Origin: Escherichia coli
GTDB taxonomy: Bacteria > Pseudomonadota > Gammaproteobacteria > Enterobacterales > Enterobacteriaceae
Reading direction: 5' to 3' (one strand)
DNA: 64,000 bases
NCBI GenBank assembly: GCA_005400705.1
Contig: GCA_005400705.1_4079.1
In this document: positions 11,243 through 32,515 of the stretch, in pieces
How the letters are laid out: each line of letters starts with the position of its first letter
Numbering within the stretch: the stretch's first letter is position 1
Notes under the pieces: generated by a model
What the model saw: the letters and a program-made list of their open reading frames with translations, nothing else
The model's database searches: none
What the model was told of the DNA's origin: nothing
Translations under genes and position numbers: made by a program

Positions 11243-11253
11243 GACTTAAAAAA

Positions 11254-11631: not shown

Positions 11632-11633
11632 TC

Positions 11634-11984: not shown

Positions 11985-11988
11985 TATT

Positions 11989-12206: not shown

Positions 12207-12234
12207 TCTCTTAATAAATTAGAGGATTTTAATT

Positions 12235-12675
12235 ATGTATGTATATCGTTTTGAACTTAAATTTAGTTACATTGAACCTAACTTAGATCCTGCACGAACT
12301 GTAGGTCCGTTTGCACGGTATTCAACCAGATACAGTACTAAAAATGGATTTGACCGTTTGCTCATGACTACACCTTCTCAATTCCAACCTGAACCAACTG
12401 AGGATGGGATCTATTCAATCAAAAGTGGATGGGTATTTGGCTGTCAAAGTTTGAAAGATTTGTTCAGATTCTTCACTATGGACTTAGGTAAATTGCATCG
12501 TGCTGGGTTTGCTATATCTGTATATGAAGTTCCAGACCACCATGTAGACATTGGTCGTAATCAGGTTCAGTACTATTGCGGTAGTGCTAAATTAGTTCGT
12601 ATCATGTCAGTTAAGGAAGCAAAGGATGAGTTCCGACAAAGTAAAAGAGAAACAAATGAGGTAATATATGGATAA
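12235..12675 (+). CDS. hypothetical protein
   Basis: 146 aa ORF, RBS agagga. Confidence 0.55.
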   Translation: MYVYRFELKFSYIEPNLDPARTVGPFARYSTRYSTKNGFDRLLMTTPSQFQPEPTEDGIYSIKSGWVFGCQSLKDLFRFFTMDLGKLHRAGFAISVYEVPDHHVDIGRNQVQYYCGSAKLVRIMSVKEAKDEFRQSKRETNEVIYG

Positions 12676-15654: not shown

Positions 15655-16932
15655 ATGAAATCTATGGAGAGAAATCAAATGCCAAGTAATTTTACTGATA
15701 AAAATGGTGGTAACATGGCTGGTCACTCTGATAAATGGAGTGAACGCAACCGCCGTCCAAATAGTTATCAAGCAGGTCAAGGTTCACGTGGGTCACGTAA
15801 TCAAGGAACTGGTCTAGCTGGTAAAGCAAACGCAGAAGCAGGTGAAGTTAAGAGTACTGAGAACATGACTGAGCTAGAAAAGCTACGTTATGTTAATTCA
15901 TTGGGACTTCTTAATGCTACACAAAAACAACGTCTAGCTGATATGGAACGTGAAGAAAAAGAAAAATCTGCTCCTGCTAAAGAAGAACCAAAACAAGAAG
16001 CACCAAAGGCGGTTAACCCTGTCAAAGAACTGTCTGATAAGTTAGGTAAGATTTTTGCTAATAAACCACAACTTATCCAAGGTATTGTGAAAGAATTGCA
16101 ATCTGTACCTAAAGAAGAATTAAAAGTCAAAGCACAAGCTGTACTTGATGCAATGAGTGGAAATACCAGTACTGAACCAACTGAAGTATTCAGTACTATA
16201 ATGCGTGCACTTGAAGGTACGCAACAAGGTGATGTGCCTGCACAAGAGGAAGTAAGTCTTGAAAGCGTACTTAAAACATTTGATAGTATTGGTAAAGAAG
16301 ACCGTGCTAATGCTCAACAAGTTAAGAATGTACTAGCTAAGTTAGAAAACCGTCTGGAAGGTAAAGACGATAAGATTAAATTAGTATCTGATGCAGTTAA
16401 CGATGCACTTAAATCTTACGTACAAGGTGAAAAGAGTCGTTTTGTAACTGCAATGGATGCTGCATTCAATACTATGAAAAAGTATGAAGCTGATCACGGT
16501 GAGAAGGTTACACGAGATGGTTATCTGATGCGTGATGATGAAGAAGGTGCAGTAGAACAGAACGATGTTCATTCAGACGAAGAAATTGATGACATGGAAG
16601 CTGAACTGTCACAAGACCGCCAAATGACTGAAAAATCCCATAACGAACTACAGAAATTAATGCAATGGGTTGCAGATGTTGGTGAAAAAGCTGGTGCTGA
16701 TAAGAAGAGTATAAACCGAAATCTTAGTTGGATTAAAGATAAAGTTGGTAACAACGCTCGTAAACTACAAAAAGCGTGGACTGATGTAGTGAATGGTGCT
16801 GTTGACATTGATGTTGAATCCGGTGAGGCATATGATTATGCATTGACTACACTTGATGACTCTTTCCGTGATTACGAAAATGGAAATGTAACTCCTTGGG
16901 AAAAGGACATCATGAGCAAATACGGTAAATGA
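15655..16932 (+). CDS. hypothetical charged (K/E/D-rich) protein
   Basis: 425 aa, largest plus-strand ORF, predicted coiled-coil-like; N-terminal YVNSLGLL motif. Confidence 0.65.
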   Translation: MKSMERNQMPSNFTDKNGGNMAGHSDKWSERNRRPNSYQAGQGSRGSRNQGTGLAGKANAEAGEVKSTENMTELEKLRYVNSLGLLNATQKQRLADMEREEKEKSAPAKEEPKQEAPKAVNPVKELSDKLGKIFANKPQLIQGIVKELQSVPKEELKVKAQAVLDAMSGNTSTEPTEVFSTIMRALEGTQQGDVPAQEEVSLESVLKTFDSIGKEDRANAQQVKNVLAKLENRLEGKDDKIKLVSDAVNDALKSYVQGEKSRFVTAMDAAFNTMKKYEADHGEKVTRDGYLMRDDEEGAVEQNDVHSDEEIDDMEAELSQDRQMTEKSHNELQKLMQWVADVGEKAGADKKSINRNLSWIKDKVGNNARKLQKAWTDVVNGAVDIDVESGEAYDYALTTLDDSFRDYENGNVTPWEKDIMSKYGK

Positions 16933-16942
16933 TAAAACAAAA

Positions 16943-16974
16943 GGTTGACTTCGGTCAGCCTTTTTTTGTAAATA
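16943..16974 (+). terminator. fused terminator-promoter (GGTTGAC-TTCG-GTCAGCC)
   Basis: Hairpin 16943-16960, T7 run, weak -10 taaata. Confidence 0.6.
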
Positions 16975-17003
16975 CAAAAGAGGAATTAAGAAGAGGGATT
17001 ACA

Positions 17004-17255
17004 ATGAAAAAATATATTATATTTGGAATTGTATTATTTTCCAGTACTACTTATGGTGCAGATTATCATTGCTCCGTAGCAAGGCAGGATTTCAGAAATG
17101 GGGAGTTCTATACTACCTCATACACAAAAGGAATAATACACGACACCGACAGAACTATTGGATTTAATGCGTTTGACAACAAAGATTCATATACTTCAGG
17201 TATACTATCTGAGCGTAAGACGGATGTACTCGGAATAGAAAAAGAGTTTCGGTGA
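17004..17255 (+). CDS. secreted small protein
   Basis: 83 aa from ATG 17004 with RBS; signal peptide; ORF-track start 16929 lies in the terminator. Confidence 0.5.
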   Translation: MKKYIIFGIVLFSSTTYGADYHCSVARQDFRNGEFYTTSYTKGIIHDTDRTIGFNAFDNKDSYTSGILSERKTDVLGIEKEFR

Positions 17256-17259
17256 TTCC

Positions 17260-17589
17260 GTGGCAATGTGTAATGACATTGAAAGTACTAAAAAAATTTA
17301 TTATAATAATGAAATAAATTATCGTTTTCATAATTTAACCACAAATAAAAGTTTACTATTTTACAATTGTAAAGAAGTAAAACTCCCACCAGACAATAGC
17401 TGTACTCCAACTAATCAACCCCCAGCACAATGTAATACTCCCTCTGAACCTGATAAAAATAAAAAAGACAAAGATAAAGATAAAAAAGAAGACAAAAAAC
17501 CTTTAAAAGATAAAAAGAAAGATAAAAAACCTAATCCGTTTAAAAATAATAAACCAGCACAACCCGATATGACGTGTAAAATAAAATAA
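17260..17589 (+). CDS. hypothetical protein with K/D-rich low-complexity tail
   Basis: 109 aa; KDKDKDKKEDKKPLKDKKKDKK. Confidence 0.4.
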   Translation: MAMCNDIESTKKIYYNNEINYRFHNLTTNKSLLFYNCKEVKLPPDNSCTPTNQPPAQCNTPSEPDKNKKDKDKDKKEDKKPLKDKKKDKKPNPFKNNKPAQPDMTCKIK

Positions 17590-17598
17590 GGATATAAA

Positions 17599-18018
17599 AT
17601 GAAAAAGATTTTTTTAAGTATTATTTTAGTACTTTTTAGTTTTAATGTATATGCAGCAGATGCTAAACAGGTTGCTAATACAGTAAAAGATGTTATAGTA
17701 GACAATGCTCCTACCTTAGAGGAAATTGGGGTAAAAACTTGTGATATTGTAATATATAATTTAGTTAATGATGAACGAGTTATGTTGAATACGTATGAAC
17801 AAGTAGTCCCATTGGTTGAATCTGGTGCTGCTTTTAGCTTTACATATAAAGTTAAATTAACAGGAGGGGTTGAAGTTAATCTTGACATTGATACCGCTTC
17901 AGTACTAAAAGATAAACTAGGATATGTGTTCAATCGTATTCGTGAAGAAGGTCATCTTAAGTATGTTTATGAAAGTAAAATACTAAAACGTGCAATAGTT
18001 ATAGAAAACTGTAAATGA
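17599..18018 (+). CDS. secreted protein (signal peptide)
   Basis: 139 aa, signal peptide MKKIFLSIILVLFSFNVYA. Confidence 0.55.
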   Translation: MKKIFLSIILVLFSFNVYAADAKQVANTVKDVIVDNAPTLEEIGVKTCDIVIYNLVNDERVMLNTYEQVVPLVESGAAFSFTYKVKLTGGVEVNLDIDTASVLKDKLGYVFNRIREEGHLKYVYESKILKRAIVIENCK

Positions 18019-18026
18019 TAATAAAA

Positions 18027-18059
18027 GGGTTGACTTCGGTCAGCCTTTTTTGTTATGAT
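18027..18059 (+). terminator. fused terminator-promoter (GGGTTGAC-TTCG-GTCAGCC)
   Basis: Hairpin 18027-18045, T6, tatgat 18054-18059. Confidence 0.65.
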
Positions 18060-18087
18060 GTTGATATTAACTACAGAGGATAAAGTA

Positions 18088-18729
18088 ATGACTAAGCAAG
18101 AAATATTCAAAACTTTAATTGACATTTTGCGTCCATCAAAAACTCGTTGTGCGATGGAGTTTGATATTCCTTATGCTGAACGCGTAATCTTTCCACAAGT
18201 TAAAGCTGCTGGACTTACTTTGCTTGGAATGGGGATGTACTCTGTAGTAGTTGAACATAAAAACTATCCTGGGCGTGCATTTAAAGTAACCACTTCACGC
18301 TGGGATGGTTTTCGTGCTTATGCAATGTACTGCATTGAAAACGCAGGAACCAAGTTTCTTCCAGTGATCTACAGTGCAAACGAACAAGGAAACTTTGGAT
18401 GGTATGAGATGGACAAGTACTATCCTATAATTAAACAAAAAAATAATTATGATGACTTTGTTAGTACTAAAATTGGAGATTTATATTCTTATGCACATGC
18501 TGGTCAGTATGCTACTTCAGTGAATGATATGCGTGGAAATTCTGAAGAGATTGCTATTGCGACGGTCGCTGCTAACATCATGAAAGAGTTTCACGGGTGT
18601 TTTGTACCAGACATTCATTCCAGTAATGTCATGATGGATAAAGATGGCAATGTATTCATTACTGATCCTCTTTCGTGTGATGTACGTAGAGAAATACCAG
18701 TTACTGAAGAAGATCCAGTTTTTTATTGA
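18088..18729 (+). CDS. kinase-like (phosphotransferase-fold) protein
   Basis: 213 aa from ATG 18088 (RBS gagga); DIHSSNVMMDKDGNVFITDP resembles the APH/protein-kinase catalytic loop and metal-binding Asp. Confidence 0.45.
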   Translation: MTKQEIFKTLIDILRPSKTRCAMEFDIPYAERVIFPQVKAAGLTLLGMGMYSVVVEHKNYPGRAFKVTTSRWDGFRAYAMYCIENAGTKFLPVIYSANEQGNFGWYEMDKYYPIIKQKNNYDDFVSTKIGDLYSYAHAGQYATSVNDMRGNSEEIAIATVAANIMKEFHGCFVPDIHSSNVMMDKDGNVFITDPLSCDVRREIPVTEEDPVFY

Positions 18730-18791
18730 CAGAACTGATGTAATGAGGTATTCTTAATAAACCATTAAAAAGTGCGGTAAAGGATAAAATC

Positions 18792-19075: not shown

Positions 19076-19414
19076 ATGGAACAATATTTTGAATTAATAA
19101 ACAAAGTATCATTTTATGTAGTATCTTTGGTTTGGGTGTATTATATGTTTTGCTACATTATTGCATTCTTCCGATACACTACTTTATATGAACGTATCTA
19201 CTATGATGCCCCAATTTCATTCTTGATGTTTTGTGCATGTACGTGGGGAATATTAGAAGTACTGATATGTGGGTATAGTACTGATGAATTAAATCTGGTA
19301 TCGGTGTTGACTGGGTTTTCATTTGTTGTTATGATAGCTGCCGTTCCAGTATGGTTGTTCTTTGGACTAGTTCATCGCATTGATATATGGCGTTCTAATA
19401 TCCCTGAAAAGTAA
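19076..19414 (+). CDS. small multi-pass membrane protein (paralog family M)
   Basis: 112 aa, 3-4 hydrophobic helices, C-terminal RSNIPEK. Confidence 0.55.
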   Translation: MEQYFELINKVSFYVVSLVWVYYMFCYIIAFFRYTTLYERIYYDAPISFLMFCACTWGILEVLICGYSTDELNLVSVLTGFSFVVMIAAVPVWLFFGLVHRIDIWRSNIPEK

Positions 19415-19417
19415 GGA

Positions 19418-19765
19418 TTGGTAATGATTTATTACACTAACATGTTTGCCTATGCTGTTGCTTGCATTTACATTGTTTACTTCTTATTCGGTGGAGTACT
19501 GTGCTTCTTTAAGTACAAAACGTTGTTCAACCGAATGTACCCAAATCATCCAATTGTAGTTGTACTTTTGATTCTTTCAGTTTCTCAAATAATCGTTGAA
19601 ACTACAATGGGTATCAGTAGTGTACATTATAGTTTTGGTACTATAGTAATTATTACTATGCTTATTGCATACATTTTAGTACTTGGATATGGTATCTTTG
19701 GTAATATTGGTATGAAAATGTATCATCGAATTAAAACATTACGTGATAATCTACCGGAGCGTTGA
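19418..19765 (+). CDS. small multi-pass membrane protein (paralog family M)
   Basis: 115 aa, C-terminal RDNLPER. Confidence 0.55.
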   Translation: MVMIYYTNMFAYAVACIYIVYFLFGGVLCFFKYKTLFNRMYPNHPIVVVLLILSVSQIIVETTMGISSVHYSFGTIVIITMLIAYILVLGYGIFGNIGMKMYHRIKTLRDNLPER

Positions 19766-19766
19766 T

Positions 19767-20111
19767 ATGTATAATTTGAACCTAATCTCATATATTATAA
19801 CAACACTGTTTACATTCTATGCCTTTGTTGGTATAATCCTACTGTACTTTAAATTTTATAAAGTGTTTAACCGTTTCTATCCTTCAATGGAGAATGAGTT
19901 TTTCTTTGTGTTGTACGTATGTTACACATTCATGGCTACATGTTTCACTGTAGTCGATGGTGTCATCGGCATTAAAACTGCTGCACCAAATGGTAGTACG
20001 CTGGTTGCATTTATTCTTACCGGATTCCTTGCAACTTATATTGCCTTCATTGCAACATGGTCAGTGGTTGAATTTCTCTTGCGACTACGAAAGAATATGC
20101 CGAATCGATAG
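19767..20111 (+). CDS. small multi-pass membrane protein (paralog family M)
   Basis: 114 aa from ATG 19767, C-terminal RKNMPNR. Confidence 0.5.
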   Translation: MYNLNLISYIITTLFTFYAFVGIILLYFKFYKVFNRFYPSMENEFFFVLYVCYTFMATCFTVVDGVIGIKTAAPNGSTLVAFILTGFLATYIAFIATWSVVEFLLRLRKNMPNR

Positions 20112-20120
20112 GAGACATAT

Positions 20121-20375
20121 ATGTTTGCATTGCGTAACAAAAACACTAAAGAAATATTATGTTTAGATACCGTATGGGATTGTGCGGGATCAACTACAGT
20201 TCTTGAAGAAGGAACTGGATATTGCGTGTTTGTTGTACATGATAGGAATGAACTCGAATTATTACTTGCTGAGTTCAATGCTGGTGGTAATCCTAACAGT
20301 ACTGAATACCCTGAGATTATCAATCCAGCACCACCAGGCTCTTATGAAATTCTACAACTGTGGGAGTTGAAGTAA
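20121..20375 (+). CDS. hypothetical protein
   Basis: 84 aa ORF, RBS aggaga. Confidence 0.5.
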   Translation: MFALRNKNTKEILCLDTVWDCAGSTTVLEEGTGYCVFVVHDRNELELLLAEFNAGGNPNSTEYPEIINPAPPGSYEILQLWELK

Positions 20376-20755
20376 TGCGTCAAATGCACAAAGTAACCGA
20401 GCTAAACAAGCGTCTGGTTAAACAATCAATGTTCGAGGATAAAGAGTCTTATTATAACTTTAAACGTGCTGTAGAGGCTGCTATCCACATTCAGAAGCTT
20501 AAAGAACGTGGTTGTATTATTCTGGAAAATGGGTCGGAAGTTGTAACGGATGACTTTAGTGTAGCGTTTGATGTTTCACCTGACGGGACGCTATCAATGC
20601 CCCGCTTAGGAACTGGAAACATGACTGTTTGGGTTGGCTTCACTATGGGGAATGTACCTGGTACTGTGTACGTAGATGATGCGGAATTGAAAGACAGTTT
20701 CAAAAACTTATCTTATCTTGAACCACAATACGCACATGAAATGAATTTATTTTGA
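20375..20755 (+). CDS. hypothetical protein
   Basis: 126 aa from ATG overlapping upstream stop (TAATG). Confidence 0.5.
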   Translation: MRQMHKVTELNKRLVKQSMFEDKESYYNFKRAVEAAIHIQKLKERGCIILENGSEVVTDDFSVAFDVSPDGTLSMPRLGTGNMTVWVGFTMGNVPGTVYVDDAELKDSFKNLSYLEPQYAHEMNLF

Positions 20756-20756
20756 G

Positions 20757-20815
20757 TTGACAAACACATTCAGTACTGTATAATGCTTATCAAGGGGATG
20801 AACTTCTCATCCCTA
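20757..20815 (+). promoter_or_regulatory. promoter TTGACA-16-TATAAT plus 5' stem-loop
   Basis: ttgaca 20757-20762, tataat 20779-20784, stem gggatga-acttc-tcatccc. Confidence 0.55.
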
Positions 20816-20831
20816 CAATCGAGGAACTACC

Positions 20832-21386
20832 ATGATTACTTTTAAGAAAACTGCTAACCACATCCATGAAATCTACATTAACGGTCACAAAGCTGGCCTT
20901 CTTCGTTTACTCGCCCATCATCCTGATGTTACCGTATCTGATAATGAACCTAAAGATTGGCGTGTATTTTTCTTTGGAAAGTACAGTGATTTTCAAGTAT
21001 CAAACCTGAAGAACATTCGTTCAGTATGCACGTTAACTGAAATTAAAGAAAAGTTAGAAAAAGCATTGAAAACTAATCCAGATGGTGTTCTTCCACCTGA
21101 TAACTTTGTAGAGAAAGGTTATGCATTAGCTCATTTCAAAGATGGTACTATTCAATCTATCAGTACTGAATATGAATATCAATGGACTGAGTACTTCACT
21201 TATGGATCGCGTAATACATTGATGGCTTCACGTAGTAAATTGGAAGAAGTACTGACTCGTATGAATGAACGCGAACGTCAATTTTATGACAAACCAGAAA
21301 TGTGGAGTTCAACTTACATTGACCGTATTGACTATGTTATTATGACTCCAATCTTTGACACTGCTTACTATGATTCTTTGAAATAA
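20832..21386 (+). CDS. hypothetical protein
   Basis: 184 aa, RBS gaggaa. Confidence 0.6.
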   Translation: MITFKKTANHIHEIYINGHKAGLLRLLAHHPDVTVSDNEPKDWRVFFFGKYSDFQVSNLKNIRSVCTLTEIKEKLEKALKTNPDGVLPPDNFVEKGYALAHFKDGTIQSISTEYEYQWTEYFTYGSRNTLMASRSKLEEVLTRMNERERQFYDKPEMWSSTYIDRIDYVIMTPIFDTAYYDSLK

Positions 21387-21397
21387 GGATAACTTAT

Positions 21398-21574
21398 ATG
21401 AAACTACGTACTCGTAATCGACTGATGGATGCACTGTACCATGAACAGCTTTCACTGAATGAAGTGAAGCGACAGTTAATGTACACATATCTGTTACCCG
21501 CTCGCATTGCAAAACAACGTGCTAAAGAATTGCTGAAAGAAGCAATCGAGTACTGGGAATCTGATTCATACTAA
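21398..21574 (+). CDS. hypothetical small protein
   Basis: 58 aa ORF (below ORF-track cutoff), RBS aagga. Confidence 0.4.
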   Translation: MKLRTRNRLMDALYHEQLSLNEVKRQLMYTYLLPARIAKQRAKELLKEAIEYWESDSY

Positions 21575-21613
21575 TATTACGTGATATGTCACGTTAATTA
21601 AGTGAGGCGATAA

Positions 21614-21865
21614 ATGAAAATATTATTAGTTTTAATACTACTAATAGTTTTACCATTTACTTTAGTATCCCCTGGACTTGCATGGAATGTATTTGTGTAC
21701 TTAGTATGTACTATTGTAGTAAATGGTATCTTGTTCTTAGTTCTATTCATAAATGGAATAGGACACGGTGGAGGATGGACCAGTACTGCTGATATTGTAC
21801 ATAAAACCACTATGTCTTTATTTGTAGTGTGGAATTTATTCTGGACTTGGTTTGTGTTCTTCTAA
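21614..21865 (+). CDS. small membrane protein
   Basis: 83 aa, hydrophobic. Confidence 0.5.
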   Translation: MKILLVLILLIVLPFTLVSPGLAWNVFVYLVCTIVVNGILFLVLFINGIGHGGGWTSTADIVHKTTMSLFVVWNLFWTWFVFF

Positions 21866-21874
21866 TTAAAAAAT

Positions 21875-22246
21875 ATGAATATAGATTTGAAAGGTGCAAC
21901 CCGAACTGTTATCCTCATTGGGGAATACGCTATCAAGATTCCAACCTTTAAAAGTTGGAAGCTATTCTTAACAGGGATGATAGCTAACCTCAATGAACGT
22001 TCGTGGATGCAGTACTCCAAGCGTAGTGATACTGGTATCTGTCCTACTTTGTGGTCATCATGTACTGGACTAGTAACTGTACAGAAACGTTGTAAGCCAG
22101 TGCAACATAGGGGTTTATTTTGGGTGGAGTTGTGTGCTTTAGCATTGAATACAGAGTTAAGTACTGACTTCTTCTATTCAGATGCGAAGCCAGAAAACTT
22201 TGGGTATCTGGGTGGTAAGTTAGTTAAACTTGATTATGGAGATTAA
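21875..22246 (+). CDS. kinase-like small protein
   Basis: 123 aa; EYAIKIP (Lys motif), DAKPENFG (catalytic-loop-like), KLDYGD (DFG-like). Confidence 0.4.
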   Translation: MNIDLKGATRTVILIGEYAIKIPTFKSWKLFLTGMIANLNERSWMQYSKRSDTGICPTLWSSCTGLVTVQKRCKPVQHRGLFWVELCALALNTELSTDFFYSDAKPENFGYLGGKLVKLDYGD

Positions 22247-22247
22247 T

Positions 22248-22517
22248 ATGTACGCACTGTATAATAAAGAAAAGAAACGATTTGCTAAGGTTGAAATTTC
22301 GATTGATACATTTGATATGTTGGAGTACTGTATTGTAACTGACCTATCTGCTAACTTGTATTACGTTCATGATGACGTATCAGTACTGCAACGATTGCTT
22401 GAGAATTCCAAAAGTCAATGCCAGGACATCCATGATGGTTCATCTTATGAAACACCTGAGTGTCCCCACGGGCAACTCGATGGGTATGAGATTGTTAAGT
22501 TGGGAATTGTTGAGTAA
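22248..22517 (+). CDS. hypothetical protein
   Basis: 89 aa from ATG 22248 with RBS ggaga. Confidence 0.5.
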   Translation: MYALYNKEKKRFAKVEISIDTFDMLEYCIVTDLSANLYYVHDDVSVLQRLLENSKSQCQDIHDGSSYETPECPHGQLDGYEIVKLGIVE

Positions 22518-22523
22518 AAGGTA

Positions 22524-22552
22524 TTGACACCGTACTCATTTAACTGTATTAT
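22524..22552 (+). promoter_or_regulatory. sigma70-type promoter TTGACA-17-TATTAT
   Basis: ttgaca 22524-22529, tattat 22547-22552. Confidence 0.5.
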
Positions 22553-22582
22553 GTATGTACACCAACTAATGAGGAATCGGAA

Positions 22583-22942
22583 ATGGCATCTTTATCTGAA
22601 ATCACTGAACTGAATCCACTGGTAATTAGTACTGTTCAACGCACCAAGACGTTTTACTTCCGTCCTGCTGATGGATGGAAACGTGGAATGAATGGTGACT
22701 ATCGAGTACTGGAAGATTCGCTCATCGAGCGTATCAACTCTGAACTACAGAAGTATGAAGGTGTTAAAGTTGTCCGTTCAACTTCTCGTTATTTTGAGTA
22801 CTACATTGAGTCTTCAACTGTAAATGAAAACTCATCATTCTCGGTGGATAACACTGATATTCTTCGCAATGCAGTTGGTTTGCTATGCAACATTGCAGAA
22901 GAAATGGGATTAACTATCACCACAATGAGTGAGTTAGAATAG
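22583..22942 (+). CDS. hypothetical protein
   Basis: 119 aa, RBS gaggaa. Confidence 0.55.
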   Translation: MASLSEITELNPLVISTVQRTKTFYFRPADGWKRGMNGDYRVLEDSLIERINSELQKYEGVKVVRSTSRYFEYYIESSTVNENSSFSVDNTDILRNAVGLLCNIAEEMGLTITTMSELE

Positions 22943-22952
22943 AATAAAAAAA

Positions 22953-22984
22953 GGGTTGACTTAGGTCGGCCCTTTTGCTATTAT
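22953..22984 (+). terminator. fused terminator-promoter (GGGTTGAC-TTAG-GTCGGCCC, G-U wobbles)
   Basis: Hairpin 22953-22972, TTTT, tattat 22979-22984. Confidence 0.55.
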
Positions 22985-23012
22985 ATCTATATCGAAACGA
23001 AGGAGACAAACC

Positions 23013-23786
23013 ATGACCCGTCAAGAGAAAGCAATCCAAATCGAAAAAAACTTCAATAGCATGATGGCTGCACTGGAATGCCTTCTTGATACACAAGCTA
23101 ACTCTATCAACTCTCTGATCGTATCAGGTAAAGGTGGTGTTGGTAAAACTTATAACGTTGACCAACGGTTGCAGAAAGCTGATGATAACTTTGAAATCGA
23201 CTACAAGAAAATCAGTGGTAAAGTAACTACTTTGGGTCTGTACGAAGCACTGTATCGTTCACGTCATGCCGCATCAGTACTGTTACTTGATGACGTTGAT
23301 ATCTTCTCTGACGAGACTAATATTGATTTGCTTAAAGCTGTGTTGGATACGTCAGAGAAGCGTGTAGTTTCTTACGCGACTTCTGCTAAGTACCTGGAAC
23401 AGCAGGGTATCCCTAAGCAGTTTGAATTCCGTGGTAAAGTAATCTTTCTGACTAACAAAAACCTGTCACAGATTGCTAAAGGTAAAAGCAGCTTAGCACC
23501 ACACATCGATGCACTGATCACTCGTAGTATCTTTGTTGACCTGCAACTGTTCACCAACGAAGAAGTGATGATTCACATTGAGAACATCATGAACAAAACT
23601 AACATCCTTGAAAACAATGGTGTTAACAAAAATGGTTGTAAAGCAATCCTGAATTGGATGCTGAACAACGAAGAACGTTTGCGTAGTCCATCACTGCGTA
23701 TGCCAGTACTGATCGCTGGTTTGTATAATAAATTCCCATACGATTGGGAATCAATGGCAGAGAATATGTTCCTTGAGAAAATTTAA
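23013..23786 (+). CDS. P-loop NTPase (AAA-like ATPase)
   Basis: 257 aa; Walker A GKGGVGKT, Walker B VLLLDDVD. Confidence 0.6.
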   Translation: MTRQEKAIQIEKNFNSMMAALECLLDTQANSINSLIVSGKGGVGKTYNVDQRLQKADDNFEIDYKKISGKVTTLGLYEALYRSRHAASVLLLDDVDIFSDETNIDLLKAVLDTSEKRVVSYATSAKYLEQQGIPKQFEFRGKVIFLTNKNLSQIAKGKSSLAPHIDALITRSIFVDLQLFTNEEVMIHIENIMNKTNILENNGVNKNGCKAILNWMLNNEERLRSPSLRMPVLIAGLYNKFPYDWESMAENMFLEKI

Positions 23787-23853
23787 TTACATGTATTGAC
23801 AGTACTACACTATGGTAGTACTATAACTTAATATTCACCACCGGAGATACGAT

Positions 23854-24192
23854 ATGCTTGAGTTTTTTAATTCAGATACAATGCTTAGTATTACTTTGAT
23901 TTATCTGTTTGGTTTTTTCTTTTATCATGCACTAGTTGTAGTACTATGGTATTTTAAAAAGAAAATCGTTTTCAAACTGTATCCTGATGGAAACATTTCA
24001 CTACTTCTTTTCACTATTATCCAAGGTATGTTTGCAATTGTTGGTCTTATCGCACACTTAATTTATTGTGCTAATCCACAGTTGAACTCAATATCACAAT
24101 ATATTGTATTCCTTGGATTACTAATTTGGGTGCTGATATACTTGTTTAATCTCATCATTAATGGAAGAGCAAAAATTCGTGGGGACTTCTAA
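23854..24192 (+). CDS. small multi-pass membrane protein (family M)
   Basis: 112 aa, hydrophobic. Confidence 0.5.
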   Translation: MLEFFNSDTMLSITLIYLFGFFFYHALVVVLWYFKKKIVFKLYPDGNISLLLFTIIQGMFAIVGLIAHLIYCANPQLNSISQYIVFLGLLIWVLIYLFNLIINGRAKIRGDF

Positions 24193-24539
24193 TGTTTGAA
24201 TCTTATCTTGAGTTTTTAAAGAGTAGTTCTGTTGCACATTCAATTGCAGGGATTATTCTAACAGGTTATGTAACATTTTGGGTAGTTATGTTTCTAGGAT
24301 GGTATTTTAAACGACAATTCTATAAGCGTAATGGTGAAGATTTTATGAATTCTTTCATTAATCAATCGTTGTTTGCATCAACATTGATAGCATGTATTGT
24401 AGCAACACTCACAGGAAAGGTACTGCCAGCATTCTCCGCAGTTTACGGTACATTGGGTATGATATGTGTAGTTTTTTACTTGACCATTAAAATTTGTTGT
24501 GTTATGATTGAACTTCGAAATAAGATACCGGAGGAATGA
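24192..24539 (+). CDS. small multi-pass membrane protein (family M)
   Basis: 115 aa, C-terminal LRNKIPEE. Confidence 0.5.
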   Translation: MFESYLEFLKSSSVAHSIAGIILTGYVTFWVVMFLGWYFKRQFYKRNGEDFMNSFINQSLFASTLIACIVATLTGKVLPAFSAVYGTLGMICVVFYLTIKICCVMIELRNKIPEE

Positions 24540-24874
24540 TGGAGTACTTTATTGATTTACTGCCGTGGTATATGAAAGTTAGTACTTTGTACTATATTAT
24601 TAGTGCTGGATTCTACTTTCTGATGTGGTTCTTTAAACGACCAATTTCAGTATTCATCGCTGATAACATGCTGCAATTAAAATTACACGCATGGTTTGGT
24701 ATGGCGATGATTATGCCTATTATTCACTACTCAATGATTAGTAGAGGTTTCCGTTCTAATGGTGAACCAATTGTATTAGTATTCTATTGGGGTTCAACTA
24801 TTGCATATGTAAGTTTGTTGTTGTTCCCAGTCGTTCATAAGTTACGTGCTAAAATTCCTGATGCGAGGTACTAA
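24536..24874 (+). CDS. small multi-pass membrane protein (family M)
   Basis: 112 aa, C-terminal LRAKIPDARY. Confidence 0.5.
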   Translation: MMEYFIDLLPWYMKVSTLYYIISAGFYFLMWFFKRPISVFIADNMLQLKLHAWFGMAMIMPIIHYSMISRGFRSNGEPIVLVFYWGSTIAYVSLLLFPVVHKLRAKIPDARY

Positions 24875-25188
24875 TGGATATAGTAACATTGATTTACACG
24901 TTGTATTCATTCTATTTCATTATGTGTTGGGTTGGATTTTTATTTGTACTCAAGATGTTTGATTATGTTGAAAAACAGATAAAAGAATTTTGTATTCCTT
25001 TTATCGGTTCAACCATTATTAGTGTTTCTTGTGTGTATTTTTTGGTTTTTGATCCACCAGATAACACTGCAATGATTGACTTGATGTTACTACCAACAAC
25101 TGTTACTTTTTTATGTAGTCTGATGCCGCCGATTAGCCGTGGACTAACAGAATTTAGACGCAATCAAAAGCGTAAACGAGGGATGTAA
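24874..25188 (+). CDS. small multi-pass membrane protein (family M)
   Basis: 104 aa, basic C-terminus. Confidence 0.5.
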   Translation: MDIVTLIYTLYSFYFIMCWVGFLFVLKMFDYVEKQIKEFCIPFIGSTIISVSCVYFLVFDPPDNTAMIDLMLLPTTVTFLCSLMPPISRGLTEFRRNQKRKRGM

Positions 25189-25556
25189 TGGAAATTGCTC
25201 TTATTATCTTAACTGCTATGCTGTTTATTAGTACTGTGGTTATAATTGGTAAATTCTTTTGTGTATCATTTTTAGAAACGGTATACGATGAAATTGCTGA
25301 TGATTATGAATTACAAGCCGGATTTTTCATTACGTATTGGCTTAGTTTATTTTGTCTAGTCATTGCTTGGATTTTACATATCTTTAAATGGGGTATGGTA
25401 GACGGTGATCCTATTATGGCAATTATTGTTCTAGTGTTTGGTATCCTTGGTGGTGCAGTGCATAATCTAATGGTTATCTGGCAAACTGTTCAATATGTTT
25501 TGGTTCCCTATTTCGAAAAGATGCACAGTACAATTAAAAAACGTAAACGAGGTTAG
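25188..25556 (+). CDS. small multi-pass membrane protein (family M)
   Basis: 122 aa, basic C-terminus KKRKRG. Confidence 0.5.
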   Translation: MEIALIILTAMLFISTVVIIGKFFCVSFLETVYDEIADDYELQAGFFITYWLSLFCLVIAWILHIFKWGMVDGDPIMAIIVLVFGILGGAVHNLMVIWQTVQYVLVPYFEKMHSTIKKRKRG

Positions 25557-25557
25557 T

Positions 25558-25920
25558 ATGAACGGGATAGAATTATCTTTCGTTGGTCAATTACTAGTAA
25601 TGGCGTATACATTTATCTTCTCACTGAATGCATTCGTGTGCATTGGGAAGTACTTCCATAAGCGACCATTATCAAATATATATGATGTAATCCAAAAGAG
25701 ATATAGTCCAGCATATACTGTGTTGGGTACAGTATTCAATTTTGGTTTTATTGTATTAATAATTGGACTGTTCACATCCTCTTTGAATACAATAACCTTC
25801 GGTCTTATGATATGTTCATTGGTATTAGCCGTAATTATATGTTGTTTAGTACTACACCTTGTGATACTATTATATATAAAGATCTCTGAAATCCACCAAC
25901 GTTTGGGTATGAGGAAATAA
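25558..25920 (+). CDS. small multi-pass membrane protein (family M)
   Basis: 120 aa from ATG 25558. Confidence 0.45.
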   Translation: MNGIELSFVGQLLVMAYTFIFSLNAFVCIGKYFHKRPLSNIYDVIQKRYSPAYTVLGTVFNFGFIVLIIGLFTSSLNTITFGLMICSLVLAVIICCLVLHLVILLYIKISEIHQRLGMRK

Positions 25921-25921
25921 T

Positions 25922-26293
25922 ATGAGTTACCGTGAGATATTTTCCATTATTTCAATTATTATGTTCAGTACTGGAACACTGGTATGGTTATTATATTTCT
26001 TCTGTATTAATCCAGTGTATAATATGTTATGTAATATTAAATCAAGTGCCGGATATATCACTTTTATGGTCTTTATGGGATATTATTGTCTAAGCATTTT
26101 AGGTGTTGTTTTGGTTGTTATATTTGATGTGGGGCCAAATAGTGATGGTATGGAAATACATGAATTAATAACCATGTTTGGATGTATGATACCAACAGCA
26201 CTACTGTTTGTAGCTACTGGTAGTGGATTGATAAAATTATATAATTATTTAAAATCCATTCATAATTCCATTCATAATAAGCGTATGTCATAA
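25922..26293 (+). CDS. small multi-pass membrane protein (family M)
   Basis: 123 aa, hydrophobic. Confidence 0.5.
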   Translation: MSYREIFSIISIIMFSTGTLVWLLYFFCINPVYNMLCNIKSSAGYITFMVFMGYYCLSILGVVLVVIFDVGPNSDGMEIHELITMFGCMIPTALLFVATGSGLIKLYNYLKSIHNSIHNKRMS

Positions 26294-26335
26294 TAAAAAA
26301 TCCAGTACTATTAAGTACTGGATGTATAAGGAGTT

Positions 26336-26998
26336 ATGATGAAATCAAAATTAGGTTTGTTTTATAAAAACTATTTTGTTAAACAACGTAAATTTATAAA
26401 AAAATATTTCTCTGGTGAGAAGTCTAGTCCTATAATTTTTAAAAGACCAAGTTATAATACTTACTTAGCTTGTGCTAAACAGTCTAAGAAATTTATTACT
26501 CTTTTAAATAAAAACAAAATTAAAGCTTCTTATGTTGAAACGAGAAGAAACTCATCAATAACTCCTGGTGATTTTATTGAGTACGGATGTTTCAATATTA
26601 AGTATAATGATAATACATACTTTATGGATATTGATTGTAATACATCCAATCTTTTTAACATTGTAGTAAATCCATTAAAACAATATAATGTTTATGGTGA
26701 TTCTATTATCAAATTAATCAAAAACAAAGATGGCTTTGATTTTGAAATAAATGTTTTAGATGATAATTTTGACGAAGTACCCGTAAACCCTGAAATCTGT
26801 GATATTTTAAACAGTTTAAAAGGTAGTACCTACAATATATCATCTGATTTAATGTTTCAGTACTCATTAATCCATAAAGATATTGAAAAGTATATTGAAT
26901 GCTCCAGAATTTTGAATTTTCTCTATGATGAATTTAAAAAGAGTTCTAAAATAACTGCATACACTTTGTACAATATTCCTAAAATGGTGAATCTTTAA
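26336..26998 (+). CDS. hypothetical protein
   Basis: 220 aa, RBS aaggag; 3' end converges on the minus-strand array. Confidence 0.55.
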   Translation: MMKSKLGLFYKNYFVKQRKFIKKYFSGEKSSPIIFKRPSYNTYLACAKQSKKFITLLNKNKIKASYVETRRNSSITPGDFIEYGCFNIKYNDNTYFMDIDCNTSNLFNIVVNPLKQYNVYGDSIIKLIKNKDGFDFEINVLDDNFDEVPVNPEICDILNSLKGSTYNISSDLMFQYSLIHKDIEKYIECSRILNFLYDEFKKSSKITAYTLYNIPKMVNL

Positions 26999-27604
26999 CA
27001 AATACAGTACTGGCAACTCCACCGTCTGTAATATATTGTCCAGTACTGTAAATTTGTATACCATCGGTTAAGTAAGTTCTGTATAAAGTTGCTGTAACAT
27101 ATACGTTATTCATATTCATCTCTATTGGTAGTACACATTTGGTATAGGCCGACACATCTGTTTGTGTACCTATACCCAATTGACCTGCGTTATCGCCTGT
27201 GTTATTACCAGTTGCGTAAACACCCAATGAAGTTATAATATGATTAGAAAAATATGAATAACCCAAACTCTTGAGATTCTCTACTGTACAACGTACCATC
27301 TGACATAAGGGCAAAAACTGTTGTATCAGATGAAGCTATTTTTGTTACAGAAGGTTGTATGTTCTGTTTTGATGATGTGATAATTCTTCGAAAGGGTAGC
27401 ATTGTATCCTCCAAATGTAAATCATTATTATATTTAGGACAAAAAAATGCCAGTACAAGGCACTGGCATAAAATCTAAGCAGAAGGCATATCCTTCATCT
27501 TAATAAATGAAAATTGTGTACCAGTATTTGTGGTTCCAATTTCTTTATTTCAGGAAGAGTTGGTTTAATATTTCCGTACTTGACCATTCTTGCAAAAGGT
27601 AACA
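26979..27604 (-). pseudogene. decayed ninth copy of the RCC1-like leader-peptide family
   Basis: Intact start MLPFARMVKYGNI near 27604 hits a stop after about 35 codons; C-terminal fragment ORF 26979-27314 still has GQLGIG. Confidence 0.5.
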
Positions 27605-27678
27605 TAATTCCCTCCTTTTATTTGTTATACTATATTTAATACAAATAAGAAAGCCAGTATCAAGTACTGGCTTTTACA
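27605..27678 (-). promoter_or_regulatory. family cassette: hairpin GCCAGTA-CTTGA-TACTGGC, TATAAT-like element, AAGGAGG RBS
   Basis: Conserved block preceding each RCC1-like paralog. Confidence 0.5.
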
Positions 27679-28869
27679 TTACAATTGTCTAGGTGTATCC
27701 AGTACATATCTATTTGTACGAGGACCACCATCATCATCAGTTCCGGTTGAATATATATTTTTCATATCAGCAGTTAGGAAAGTACGATACGAACCGCGAT
27801 ATATTTTTATTTTATCATACATAGAATATGTTATTTCTGACGGCAATGGACATGCAGTAAATTTACCAATGGTAACATCAGAACCAACACCCAATGTGCC
27901 AGCATAACTACTCGCATTTAAACCAGTTGCATATACACCTGCACTCGTAACTAGTATACTAGATTGTGTTGGGTATCCAGTATGAATTGAATACAAAGTA
28001 CCGGGTGGTAAGGTTGTACTATTGTTTCCTAAAACTCCATTAACAGTGCTAGATGTAGTTTTATTTCCCCATGCTCCATTATTAGCTAATCCACCAACTA
28101 GAAACTGACGTGCTCCTGTATTTGGATTCTCCACTAAAGCACTGACTGAACCCATTGAGCATACAGTGTATTGTAACGTTTTTGTGTATGTTGTACTTGG
28201 CTGATATAAAGTATATTCATTATATAAAGTCCATGTAGTGCTGGAACTTATACCGGATGTACCACCACCAATATATAAATTATTTTGTGTATCAAAAAAC
28301 ATTGCACAGCTATTTGTTGACATTATTTGTGCAATATCAACATCTGGTGTTACAGCTTTAACAAATGAACCATCGGTTATTTGTTGAGTTTTTCCAGTAC
28401 CATCAGCGAATTGTTTAGCCCCACTCCAACCAGTACTCCATATTGTATTATTATCCATTAAGAAAGTAAACCACGTAGTACCTGCATACATCTGTTTAAT
28501 TGAAGTACTTGAACTTTGTGTGAACAAATTTTCAATATATTGGTTATAACTTAAAAATGATGTAGTACTAGTTTCTAAACCAATATGACTACCATATCCA
28601 CAATAAAAATAATTTAAGTCATTATCTTGTACTAACAAAGTTCCTTCTGACATCCAACAATCGTTAACGTTTTCTCTAATTAATGTCCATGTTCTTAATG
28701 CAGTGTTGTTTCCTCTCCCAAACTTCCCAAAACTATTATTGCCTCGTGCGTATAGTTGACCATCAGTATAAAGTACAACAACATCACTATTGATTGGTAT
28801 TATTTTCTTAATTTGAAGAGGCTCAGGTGTAATATTTCCATAATCAAACATTCTAACAAAAGGTAACAT
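27679..28869 (-). CDS. RCC1-like repeat (beta-propeller) protein with MLPFVRMFDYGN leader, paralog 1
   Basis: 396 aa from ATG with RBS aaggagg; G-x-F/L-G-x-G repeats; ORF-track extension MPVLDTG... reads through the upstream hairpin. Confidence 0.7.
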   Translation of the reverse strand: MLPFVRMFDYGNITPEPLQIKKIIPINSDVVVLYTDGQLYARGNNSFGKFGRGNNTALRTWTLIRENVNDCWMSEGTLLVQDNDLNYFYCGYGSHIGLETSTTSFLSYNQYIENLFTQSSSTSIKQMYAGTTWFTFLMDNNTIWSTGWSGAKQFADGTGKTQQITDGSFVKAVTPDVDIAQIMSTNSCAMFFDTQNNLYIGGGTSGISSSTTWTLYNEYTLYQPSTTYTKTLQYTVCSMGSVSALVENPNTGARQFLVGGLANNGAWGNKTTSSTVNGVLGNNSTTLPPGTLYSIHTGYPTQSSILVTSAGVYATGLNASSYAGTLGVGSDVTIGKFTACPLPSEITYSMYDKIKIYRGSYRTFLTADMKNIYSTGTDDDGGPRTNRYVLDTPRQL

Positions 28870-28939
28870 ATTTCCTCCTTTATTCATTATACTATATTTA
28901 ATACAAAAAGAAATGCCAGTATCAAGTACTGGCATAATA
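28870..28939 (-). promoter_or_regulatory. family cassette (hairpin, TATAAT, AAGGAGG)
   Basis: Near-identical to the other inter-paralog blocks. Confidence 0.5.
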
Positions 28940-30118
28940 TTATCGGTTAAATTTAAAATCTGTTATGTGTGTCCATGTATGATTTAATGGTGTACTCATT
29001 GGTGTAAAGCCAGCAGGGTCTGACAAAGCTGTACCACGTGCGTACATAAATTGATTGCCAGTACAATCCATTATAGCATAAGAACGTGTTGCTGTGCCAC
29101 ATTTGAACCCAACTGCACTACTTGGGGTCGGTAATACTTCAAATGTAGGTGCATTTGAACTACCACCCCCATCTTTTGTTCCAGCTATGTACAGAACTCC
29201 ATTAGTATCAATGATTAAGTTAGTCCAATATGCTTGTTCTCGACCAGCATAAAAATATGTTAAATCACCGGGTACAAATGGTAACGTTCCTTTATATATT
29301 GTGGTATTAACATTCACTGGTGCACCAGCTACACCCCATGAACTCATATAGTTTCTCCCACTTGCGTAGAATGTAGTTCCTTTACCGTAAAGTATTAATG
29401 TTGCTTGACTTGTTCGCATTGCATTATATTCAAACTCAGGATCATCAGTAGCGTCCTTAAAAATCTGTGTCCATGTTGTTATATTGCCAGTAGTTGTAAC
29501 ACCCATTTGATAATAATAATTATCACCAGTAGCATAGAATTCTTTAGGGCCAGTTTGTACAATTGCATTCCCATTAGTTAACCAAAAATCTAATGTATTA
29601 GTCTTGATCTTGGTTGGTGTGTAATTCGCCACGGTATTTCCTTTTCCGAAATAACCATTAGCGTTATTTCCATGACCCCATAAATCACCATTAGTTGTGC
29701 GTAGGAATAATGTACCAGTATTGAATCCAACTTTTTCTATAGTACTTATGTCAATACCAACAGCAGTGTACTTCGTTGTAAAATCTTGAAAAGTACTCCA
29801 ATAATTTGATGAACCATTAAACATGGTTTGTCTGCCAGTGTACTTCACTTTATTATCGTTAGTGATAAGTAATGTCCCCCACACTGACGCGAACATTAAC
29901 TTAACATTTTCCATAACAAAGTATGGCTTACCGTATGCTGACGCGGTAGTGTTTAAACCTAATAGTTGTCCATCATTACTACAACCCCATACTTCGCCGT
30001 TATCCAAAAGCATCAACATAGTAGGTTTGCCAGATGATACATCCAAAAAGAAATCTTTTGGTGTTGGTACACCAGGTGTGATATTCCCATAATCAAACAA
30101 TCTTACAAAAGGTAACAT
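28940..30118 (-). CDS. RCC1-like repeat protein with MLPFVRLFDYGN leader, paralog 2
   Basis: 392 aa; conserved leader and RBS. Confidence 0.7.
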   Translation of the reverse strand: MLPFVRLFDYGNITPGVPTPKDFFLDVSSGKPTMLMLLDNGEVWGCSNDGQLLGLNTTASAYGKPYFVMENVKLMFASVWGTLLITNDNKVKYTGRQTMFNGSSNYWSTFQDFTTKYTAVGIDISTIEKVGFNTGTLFLRTTNGDLWGHGNNANGYFGKGNTVANYTPTKIKTNTLDFWLTNGNAIVQTGPKEFYATGDNYYYQMGVTTTGNITTWTQIFKDATDDPEFEYNAMRTSQATLILYGKGTTFYASGRNYMSSWGVAGAPVNVNTTIYKGTLPFVPGDLTYFYAGREQAYWTNLIIDTNGVLYIAGTKDGGGSSNAPTFEVLPTPSSAVGFKCGTATRSYAIMDCTGNQFMYARGTALSDPAGFTPMSTPLNHTWTHITDFKFNR

Positions 30119-30189
30119 ATTTCCCTCCTTTATTCATTATACTATATTTAATACAAATAAGAATGCCAGTATCAAGTACTGGCATTATG
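30119..30189 (-). promoter_or_regulatory. family cassette (hairpin, TATAAT, AAGGAGG)
   Basis: gccagtacttgatactggc hairpin and tatagtataatgaataaaggaggg. Confidence 0.5.
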
Positions 30190-31299
30190 TTATTTTGGTA
30201 AATCAATTTTAGTAAAGACTGCAACATCTTCACTTGCTCCTGGTATTGCGTAATAAGAACCAGTACTATACACATCTCCATTTTTGGTTAATATCGATGT
30301 CAAACCATCACTAAAAAGAACATCCCTAATCTCACTAACTTCAACTGGTAATTGTAAATTGGTAGCACTATATATAGCACCAGTTTGAGAATTGTTTAAT
30401 CCCAAACCACGGTTCGCCCCAACACCCTTCTGATATGTACTAGTAATTACCATTTGTGTAGCAGTATTTAAGGCAGGTGAATTCGTCATAAACAACGGAG
30501 AACTATTAGGCAAAGTACTTACAGGAACGGCACGGAATGTAGTCGTACCTGAACTAAGAAAGTTTGGAGTTTGACCACATACGAAATATGATGTACCATT
30601 ATAGTAATTGAATGCATTACCACCAATGGCTGCATCGATTACACCAGAACTACGCAATCCCCAAGTGTTAATTTGTGTTTGGTTCCCCGTACCATGCTGT
30701 CCACTACTATTCCATCCAGAACTATATAGCTTATTATCTAATGTAAGATACATACTATCATTCGCATTGGTCATTACTTTACGAACGTTCGTAGCACATT
30801 GAGTTAATGTGTAAATTGATGAGGAACCAATACCCAAAGAACCACGATATCCATTATCTCCTGCACCATAGAGTACTGAATTAGTGCTAAGTACAAATAT
30901 TAAACCATTTGTACATACAATATTAGCAATTTCACTTACTGGTATAGCATTGGTAAACCAATTAGTCCTTTCAACTAATACAGTACTGTAAGAAGTAGTT
31001 GTAGAAGATGAGAACCAGTACGTTTGACCTGATGTCCATATCGTATTATCATTTTTAATAATAACAAGTGTACGATCACCCACGAAAAAATTAGAAACAT
31101 CTGTACTTACTAATATCCATGAAGATACCGTGTTGGTATTACCATTTCCAGATTCACCACCTTGATTTCTACCTATGTAATATAAATCATGTGAATCAGT
31201 CAATAAGAATTGACCTTGTGTAGAAGCACCAACTTTAATTATATTTTTAGGACCAGGTACAATATTTCCGTACTTAACCATTCTTGCAAAAGGTAACAT
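30190..31299 (-). CDS. RCC1-like repeat protein with MLPFARMVKYGN leader, paralog 3
   Basis: 369 aa; GSLGIG, GQHGTG motifs; only 10 nt downstream of paralog 4 (likely co-transcribed). Confidence 0.7.
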   Translation of the reverse strand: MLPFARMVKYGNIVPGPKNIIKVGASTQGQFLLTDSHDLYYIGRNQGGESGNGNTNTVSSWILVSTDVSNFFVGDRTLVIIKNDNTIWTSGQTYWFSSSTTTSYSTVLVERTNWFTNAIPVSEIANIVCTNGLIFVLSTNSVLYGAGDNGYRGSLGIGSSSIYTLTQCATNVRKVMTNANDSMYLTLDNKLYSSGWNSSGQHGTGNQTQINTWGLRSSGVIDAAIGGNAFNYYNGTSYFVCGQTPNFLSSGTTTFRAVPVSTLPNSSPLFMTNSPALNTATQMVITSTYQKGVGANRGLGLNNSQTGAIYSATNLQLPVEVSEIRDVLFSDGLTSILTKNGDVYSTGSYYAIPGASEDVAVFTKIDLPK

Positions 31300-31309
31300 A
31301 ATTCTCTCC

Positions 31310-32440: not shown

Positions 32441-32515
32441 AACTAAAATCTCCATATAATAATTATAATGTATTTACAAAAAAATACCAGTACATATTTC
32501 AGTACTGGTATAATG
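32441..32515 (-). promoter_or_regulatory. family cassette variant (hairpin ACCAGTACTGAAATATGTACTGGT, TATAAT)
   Basis: Palindromic hairpin plus tataat. Confidence 0.45.

Follow-up and report, generated by a model that had tools for sequence, protein, structure and literature searches.

Two tandem clusters of predicted three-helix membrane proteins in a Rak2-like jumbo phage appear to form one old, clade-restricted family

Phage superinfection-exclusion proteins such as T4 Imm and HK97 gp15 are small inner-membrane proteins; Imm, with two transmembrane (TM) segments, is a non-structural protein that a lytic T4-type phage makes early and that can be dispensed with under laboratory conditions. 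Class I holins have three TM domains (TMDs), with the N-terminus out and the C-terminus in (N-out/C-in), and a strongly basic cytoplasmic tail. Here, we describe ten genes for small membrane proteins that lie in two clusters, A (A1–A3, 19076–20111) and B (B1–B7, 23854–26293), on the + strand of a 64,000-nucleotide stretch of DNA from an Escherichia coli assembly (contig GCA_005400705.1_4079.1 of GenBank assembly GCA_005400705.1), the whole of which is referred to below as the window. The 7.4-kb region that holds them is 89–97% identical in nucleotide sequence to Asteriusvirus-type jumbo coliphages (121Q, PBECO4, phAPEC6, slurp01, CRJP21 and WPEC3), which identifies the window as part of a lytic myovirus of ~350 kb from the Rak2-like group. 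A first-pass annotation of the window had proposed that the ten genes are a tandemly amplified family of paralogues in a lytic phage. All ten open reading frames (ORFs) were found where it had placed them, and the sizes that it gave, 104–123 residues, hold once three starts are corrected: as judged from the first in-frame ATG and the annotated starts in related phages, A2, A3 and B6 (MNGIEL...) begin at the ATG codons listed in Table 1 rather than at TTG 19418, GTG 19743 and position 25495, respectively.

Profiles, decoy controls, a shared topology and shared motifs all bear out the proposal of one paralogous family in two tandem clusters, and we are highly confident in describing it, in both structural and evolutionary terms, as one old, clade-restricted multigene family. 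Pairwise comparison of the ten proteins with BLAST and phmmer gives significant matches only among A1, A2 and A3 (phmmer E-value of A2 against A1, 4e-10), between B1 and B2 and between A1 and B7. Because pairwise similarity is this thin, the profiles were enriched with orthologues from phages 121Q, Turkey5, A4, ph0011 and UE-S1, giving eleven groups, that is, the ten genes plus B0, an extra copy that is present in 121Q and ph0011 and absent from the window and from WPEC3. With ten of the eleven groups as seeds, iterative jackhmmer searches converged on the family and in several cases reached every group; the search seeded with B4 retrieved B4 alone. None of the searches included any of ~1,200 composition-matched shuffled or reversed decoys or any other ORF of the window. 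When one group at a time was left out of the family hidden Markov model (HMM), eight of the eleven held-out groups scored 20–49 bits, compared with at most 17 bits for the best decoy; the scores were 34–44 bits for A2 (best decoy, 17 bits) and 12–33 and 10–32 bits for B3 and B4, both of which overlap the decoy range. Scanned with the family HMM, the window yielded no additional member, and no other ORF fell below E = 0.28. In profile–profile comparison with hhalign, A3 aligns with A1 and A2 at 97% probability, B1 with B0 at 99.9% and B2 with B3 at 95.5%, and the profiles of the two subtypes described below, types I and II, align end to end over 101 columns at 94% probability (E = 1.4e-7; reversed controls, 2–6%). 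B4, with a best pairwise hhalign probability of 15%, is the weakest member; what ties it in is mainly an orthologue in phage A4, together with its place in the array, the common topology and a tail like that of B5.

One could instead suppose that there is no single family and that the resemblance comes from hydrophobic composition and chance among unrelated small membrane genes, a view to which the many non-significant pairwise comparisons lend some colour, as do the group-to-group hhalign probabilities, some of which are below 10% and which for B4 never rise higher than the value just given. It is, however, hardly credible: the shuffled or reversed decoys are not recruited, the two subtype profiles align end to end where their reversed controls do not, the motifs fall at the same positions in proteins of identical length, topology and tandem position, and the same array recurs in other phage genera.

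The alignment of all ten proteins, on whose outcome the idea of a family depended, shows both a common topology and a common motif. Three hydrophobic helices are present in every protein; the fourth that the first-pass annotation had allowed for in some of them is present in none. Together, the ten proteins carry 42 Lys and Arg residues in their C-termini and 29 in loop 1, compared with 4 each in the N-termini and in loop 2 (71 cytoplasmic and 8 periplasmic), an unambiguous positive-inside signal from which all ten are predicted to be inner-membrane proteins with three TM helices, the N-terminus out and the C-terminus in. In the curated record of Klebsiella phage Muenster, an independent source, five of the eight array proteins carry the TMHMM note "3 TMDs; N-out, C-in", and the remaining three are called differently. 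An AlphaFold2 model of A1 (mean predicted local distance difference test score 77; helices at residues 2–31, 35–41, 45–65 and 74–107) has three long helices and one short cytoplasmic helix. In the common plan that the alignment reveals, a short N-terminal stretch in the periplasm leads into TM1, which closes with [WFY][FY]F[KRC]; a basic loop in the cytoplasm connects TM1 to TM2, a short loop enriched in acidic residues, Pro and Gly connects TM2 to TM3, and TM3 continues into an amphipathic helix, after which comes a basic tail. When close orthologues are compared, TM2 and TM3 vary about twofold more than TM1 and loop 1. The C-termini had been called basic and related, as the alignment confirms (two to seven Lys and Arg residues in each C-terminal segment), and they come in two types. 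Type I comprises A1–A3 and B0–B3, with tails that are mostly RxxIPE[RK] (A1–A3, B2 and B3) or, in B0 and B1, RxKIRGDF-like; type II comprises B4–B7, with FFC[VI] after TM1 and tails of the form HxxIxxKR or KRKRG. The features that define the family, namely a length of ~100–130 residues, three N-out/C-in TM helices, the motif at the end of TM1 and the tail, are found in all ten proteins, in B4 weakly so by sequence; the tandem position after the ATPase gene is that of the B genes, A1–A3 lying in a second cluster 3 kb upstream.

An exhaustive profile search of 1.84 billion protein cluster representatives returned 21 clusters, all recognizable by sequence as array proteins; the five that were looked up come from ENA or Logan metagenome contigs whose source phage is not established. 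A word-indexed search gave 16 close relatives, A1 is identical in 21 phage records, and the IMG/VR loci with B7 orthologues are those of 121Q and RaK2 only. As judged by these matches, the restriction of the family to this clade of giant phages shares the high confidence that we attach to its description. Searches against Pfam (the ten proteins at E ≤ 1 and 43 family members at E ≤ 0.1) gave scattered chance-level matches and no holin model, NCBIfam searches with the ten proteins gave chance-level matches at most and no holin family, and PADLOC detected no defense component among them, its single match being at chance level (E = 0.26). Neither Imm_superinfect nor any other immunity family of Pfam or PHROG matched any of the ten, a profile search of PDB sequences gave nothing below E = 0.05, and fold searches were uninformative. 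PHROG families are matched by nine of the ten proteins, by eight of them at 1e-46 to 1e-70 (A1 matches phrog_19285 at 3.9e-59) and by A3 only at 4e-4; B6 has no match. The families matched (phrog_19285, 19454, 19046, 27396, 33258, 26405 and 27618) are all unassigned in function, and there is also a weak match to phrog_16874, "membrane protein". The proteins are thus already on record, deposited under hypothetical or putative-membrane-protein names and split over seven unrelated-looking PHROG families; new relative to the PHROGs are the recognition that they are one family, the division into two subtypes and the conserved structure of the array. Literature searches found no paper describing this family. 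In one record, that of CRJP21 (OQ708376.1), the A1 orthologue carries the name "Endonuclease V" and the B1 and B2 orthologues the name "regulator of chromosome condensation"; the product names are probably shifted relative to the genes, an annotation offset.

The term "tandemly amplified" is apt in that the genes form a tandem family, and misleading in that the amplification is not recent, the array being ancient and largely collinear with little change in copy number. Klebsiella phages RaK2 and Muenster carry eight array copies and Erwinia phage Hallingskeid carries eleven. In Muenster there are eight tandem three-TM genes, two small ORFs downstream of the 771-nt counterpart of the window's NrdC.10-like P-loop ATPase gene; in Hallingskeid the eleven members follow this ATPase gene too and are themselves followed by an array of RCC1-repeat genes. 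Type I genes precede type II genes in both the Klebsiella and the Erwinia phages, and group HMMs identify Muenster orthologues of B3 (75.8 bits), B4 (66 bits), B5 (44 bits) and B7 (111.8 bits); B6 has an orthologue in Hallingskeid (49 bits) and none in Muenster, and B1 is 27.6% identical to proteins of RaK2, K64-1 and Muenster (E = 2e-4). On this evidence the array is old, and its subtype order and several one-to-one orthologues have been kept across jumbo phages of Escherichia, Klebsiella and Erwinia. The ratio of nonsynonymous to synonymous substitution rates (dN/dS) of B1–B7 against four relatives is 0.09–0.47, which indicates purifying selection on all seven B genes.

Variation is seen at the level of single copies. 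The A cluster, 3 kb upstream of B, is found only in Asteriusvirus-type genomes, where it holds one to three family copies (a single copy in phage A4), and is absent from the 5–7 kb upstream of the ATPase gene in the Klebsiella and Erwinia phages. B4 is duplicated in Turkey5 and frameshifted in 121Q, where one extra T in a T-run splits it into the annotated gp228 and gp229 (locus 11232–11547, corresponding to window positions 24874–25188); this could be a genuine pseudogene or a homopolymer sequencing error. The UE-S1 annotation has some copies truncated or missing. The records of Salmonella SD phages show many deletions throughout this region, including some within the ATPase gene, and were not used as evidence of dispensability because of uncertain assembly quality. 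The phage in the window is itself a recombinant that switches allele type at the B2/B3 junction (~24530). At the DNA level, B1 and B2 are near-identical to the allele of WPEC3 type, from which each gene has one or two differences, and in protein they are only ~82–91% identical to 121Q; the ATPase protein is also of the WPEC3 type (98.4%); from the junction onward, B3–B7 are near-identical to 121Q.

The coordinates of the genes and of the signals around them are collected in Table 1. Genes inside each array abut or overlap (TAATG, ATGA), which suggests that the arrays are translationally coupled and operon-like. On the + strand of the 10-kb region, 13 promoter matches agree with the consensus at 10 or more of 12 positions; 6 of them lie in short intergenic gaps that together account for ~5–10% of the region (p ~1e-3 to 1e-5 by a simple binomial estimate), and two of these six directly precede the A unit and B1. 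The arrays would accordingly be candidates for early transcription by host RNA polymerase from sigma-70-type promoters. In the virion proteome of phAPEC6, as shown in the paper on that phage, the orthologues gp012c–017c and gp028c–029c are absent and the adjacent RCC1 proteins are present; we infer that the array products are non-structural.

Table 1. Array genes, the conserved neighbor and predicted signals in the window
Feature	Position	Strand	Description
Sigma-70-like promoter TTGACA-17-TATTCT	18726..18754	+	Consensus match; in the gap before a 93-aa gene and the A1-A2-A3 unit
A1	19076..19414	+	112 aa, 3-TM type I, C-terminus RSNIPEK
A2	19424..19765	+	113 aa, type I, RDNLPER; start corrected to ATG 19424
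A3	19767..20111	+	114 aa, type I, RKNMPNR; start corrected to ATG 19767
P-loop ATPase, T4 NrdC.10 homologue	23013..23786	+	Conserved neighbor upstream of the B array
Sigma-70-like promoter TTGACA-17-TACTAT	23796..23824	+	Consensus match; in the 68-nt ATPase-B1 gap, followed by a GGAGA ribosome-binding site
B1	23854..24192	+	112 aa, type I, RAKIRGDF
B2	24192..24539	+	115 aa, type I, RNKIPEE; start codon overlaps B1 stop (TAATG)
B3	24536..24874	+	112 aa, type I, RAKIPDARY; ATGA overlap with B2
B4	24874..25188	+	104 aa, probable type II, RRNQKRKRGM; weakest family link
B5	25188..25556	+	122 aa, type II; GKFFCV after TM1, tail KKRKRG
B6	25558..25920	+	120 aa, type II; start corrected to ATG 25558
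B7	25922..26293	+	123 aa, type II, tail HNKRMS
10-bp hairpin	26300..26323	.	Directly after B7, at the array end; T-run on - strand, function uncertain

As to function, the first-pass annotation had named superinfection exclusion or immunity, channel modulation and anti-defense as candidates. An early accessory role in the envelope is plausible, given the sigma-70-like promoters, the absence from the virion and the loss of single copies in some isolates. The neighbors of the arrays are of a typical early or accessory kind (a T7 gp0.7-like kinase and the NrdC.10 homologue), and an accessory character is also what we infer from the presence or absence of B0, the B4 frameshift, the copies truncated or missing in the UE-S1 annotation, the one to three A copies and the exchange of alleles by recombination at a gene boundary. 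We tentatively read the proteins as early accessory inner-membrane factors of the superinfection-exclusion type, a reading by analogy that we consider possible, if less than probable. The host RNA polymerase would transcribe the arrays early from the sigma-70-type promoters, and the products would become part of the inner membrane of the host and remain in it, without entering the virion. Each paralogue would act as an accessory factor of envelope takeover, analogous to T4 Imm: TM1, the [WFY][FY]F[KRC] motif and the RxxIPE or HxxIxxKR tail may form a common module on the cytoplasmic face for insertion or partner binding, and the more variable TM2-loop-TM3 hairpin may contact various inner-membrane components on which the DNA entry of other phages depends. 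In this way competitors would be kept out of the infected cell throughout the long jumbo-phage cycle.

Several points weigh against superinfection exclusion. No homology links the family to exclusion; the exclusion proteins known to us are single genes, not arrays of 8–11; and the one-to-one orthologues, the subtype order shared by phages of three host genera and the purifying selection would be expected of a conserved housekeeping-like role or a multi-subunit complex no less than of an arms-race function. The extra variability of TM2 and TM3 may simply reflect relaxed constraint on lipid-facing residues, the promoters are consensus matches whose total number is not above the shuffled expectation (57 found, 49.9 expected), and small hydrophobic proteins are readily missed in virion mass spectrometry. 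Early-type promoters, a non-virion location, accessory variation in copy number and multiplicity would also suit proteins that neutralize host defenses at or in the inner membrane, different paralogues acting on different systems, with membrane-anchored sensors, nucleases or pore-forming abortive-infection effectors as targets. We know of no phage-encoded membrane inhibitor of this kind, and the conservation of the array across three host genera with differing defense repertoires, dN/dS values well below 1 and the lack of a match to PADLOC or any other such family make anti-defense unlikely, even though membrane-bound defenses that act at genome injection do exist (e.g., SNIPE; PMC13190303).

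By size (~105–125 residues), three TMDs, N-out/C-in orientation and basic cytoplasmic tail, the proteins have the topology of class I holins and might form homo- or hetero-oligomeric channels or holes that control membrane potential or the timing of lysis, for which translational coupling would permit stoichiometric co-expression; they might also serve a signal-anchor-release (SAR)-type endolysin of this phage group, inasmuch as the predicted endolysin of phage CBB has an N-terminal TMD and homologues in 121Q, GAP32 and RaK2, and the paper describing it mentions no holin (PMC5259590). A holin-like or viroporin function is nevertheless distinctly unlikely: the family matches no Pfam or NCBIfam holin family, neither array has an endolysin or spanin beside it (the neighbors being the kinase, RCC1 genes, hypothetical genes and the gene for the NrdC.10-like ATPase), 121Q encodes its endolysin homologue, gp532, at a long distance from gp207–232 (PMC5259590), sigma-70-like promoters and an early-type neighborhood disfavor late lysis genes, and 8–11 copies are far above the need of any known lysis cassette. 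The proteins could also be subunits or anchors of a phage-built inner-membrane platform, their conserved tails drawing phage or host proteins from the cytoplasm into replication, head assembly or the handling of a giant genome, in keeping with the preservation of paralogue identity and subtype order over a long evolutionary distance, with purifying selection, with the cytoplasmic motifs being the most conserved parts and with overlapping stop and start codons that suggest co-expression. Such a scaffold or anchor is distinctly doubtful in view of the copies lost, duplicated or frameshifted in viable isolates, the lack of a B6 orthologue in Muenster and the lack of an identifiable partner, the adjacent ATPase being a general T4-like gene that has no array in T6. 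Quite improbable in our estimate is a hetero-oligomeric machine, a channel or platform with the two subtypes in fixed positions, built in the inner membrane by Rak2-like giant phages only, which would handle the 350-kb genome or control the energetics of the host membrane and in which the paralogues would be subunits rather than independent effectors; if it existed, paralogue identity and order would have been kept across the Escherichia, Klebsiella and Erwinia phages because the subunits occupy fixed positions.

The genes around the arrays were also analyzed. The ATPase gene, a homologue of T4 NrdC.10, precedes the B array in all three phage genera. Since it is found in over 1,300 phage records, and since in phage T6 no such array lies beside it, the ATPase is probably not a specific partner of the array. 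Upstream of the A cluster, 18055–18729 encodes a protein kinase resembling T7 gp0.7 (phrog_15752, 3.8e-97), whose first ATG lies within a promoter-like site at 18030–18059; this fits the shorter, 642-nt annotation of the gene in phAPEC6 and UE-S1 (start MTKQEIF). A segmental duplication of kinase plus array found no support, the two kinase-like genes having no detectable similarity. By eye, 16929–18018 holds two small ORFs with signal-peptide-like N-termini, MKKYIIFGIVLFSSTTYG... and MKKIFLSIILVLFSFNVYA/AD..., which appear to be targeted to the envelope, and 17260–17589 encodes a lysine-rich low-complexity protein.

The segment between the two clusters is a hotspot of insertion and deletion, including, in relatives, homing endonucleases: at 22517–23013 the window has a single 119-aa ORF, and 121Q has several small ORFs in addition to denV (endonuclease V) and an endonuclease gene of 1.46 kb. 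Two small soluble proteins, one encoded after the A cluster (20121–20375, MFALRNK...) and one upstream of B (22248–22517, MYALYNK...), both match phrog_8563 and are barely similar when compared directly. A very hydrophobic 83-aa ORF at 21614–21865 was rejected as a family member or Imm homologue, being neither recruited by the family HMM nor matched in PHROG or Pfam; BLAST aligns only 38 of its residues, and weakly, with a protein of Hallingskeid that bears an immunity annotation. This ORF is conserved as gp214 of 121Q and may correspond to an 81-aa protein of Muenster noted as "3 TMDs N-in C-out". Downstream of the B array, the gene after B7 encodes an unrelated 220-aa protein (phrog_34359); the Muenster array is followed by genes for a putative outer-membrane lipoprotein and a ClpP-like protease (locus 11104–12341). 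On the - strand, 26979–37332 holds eight full-length RCC1-repeat paralogues of 369–418 residues and, at 26979–27414, two short RCC1-like ORF fragments, apparently left over from a ninth copy. The membrane-protein and RCC1 arrays are adjacent both in Asteriusvirus and in Hallingskeid.

Jumbo phages of the Rak2/121Q group are phage-therapy candidates whose genes are mostly unassigned in function (83% of genes are without known function according to the phAPEC6 paper), and 8–11 separate "hypothetical proteins" per genome can now be treated as one family with a defined topology, two subtypes, motifs and a locus. Should the proteins act in exclusion or counter-defense, they would bear on the design of phage cocktails and on phage competition and would be the largest known battery of this sort in one virus; should they form a complex, they would represent a new kind of phage membrane machine.

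Compared with described systems, the array proteins resemble T4 Imm and HK97 gp15 in being small and located, as predicted, in the inner membrane, and differ from Imm in having no sequence similarity to it and in comprising 8–11 conserved paralogues. With class I holins such as lambda S and P22 gp13 they share a length of ~100–125 residues, three TMDs, N-out/C-in topology and a basic C-terminus, whereas they lack any holin-family match and a lysis cassette, sit in an early-type promoter context and occur in high copy number. The RCC1-repeat array of Rak2-like phages is likewise a tandem multigene family of the same clade and adjoins the membrane-protein array; its products, however, are soluble β-propeller-type virion proteins encoded on the opposite strand, whereas the membrane-protein family is encoded on the + strand and appears to be non-virion.

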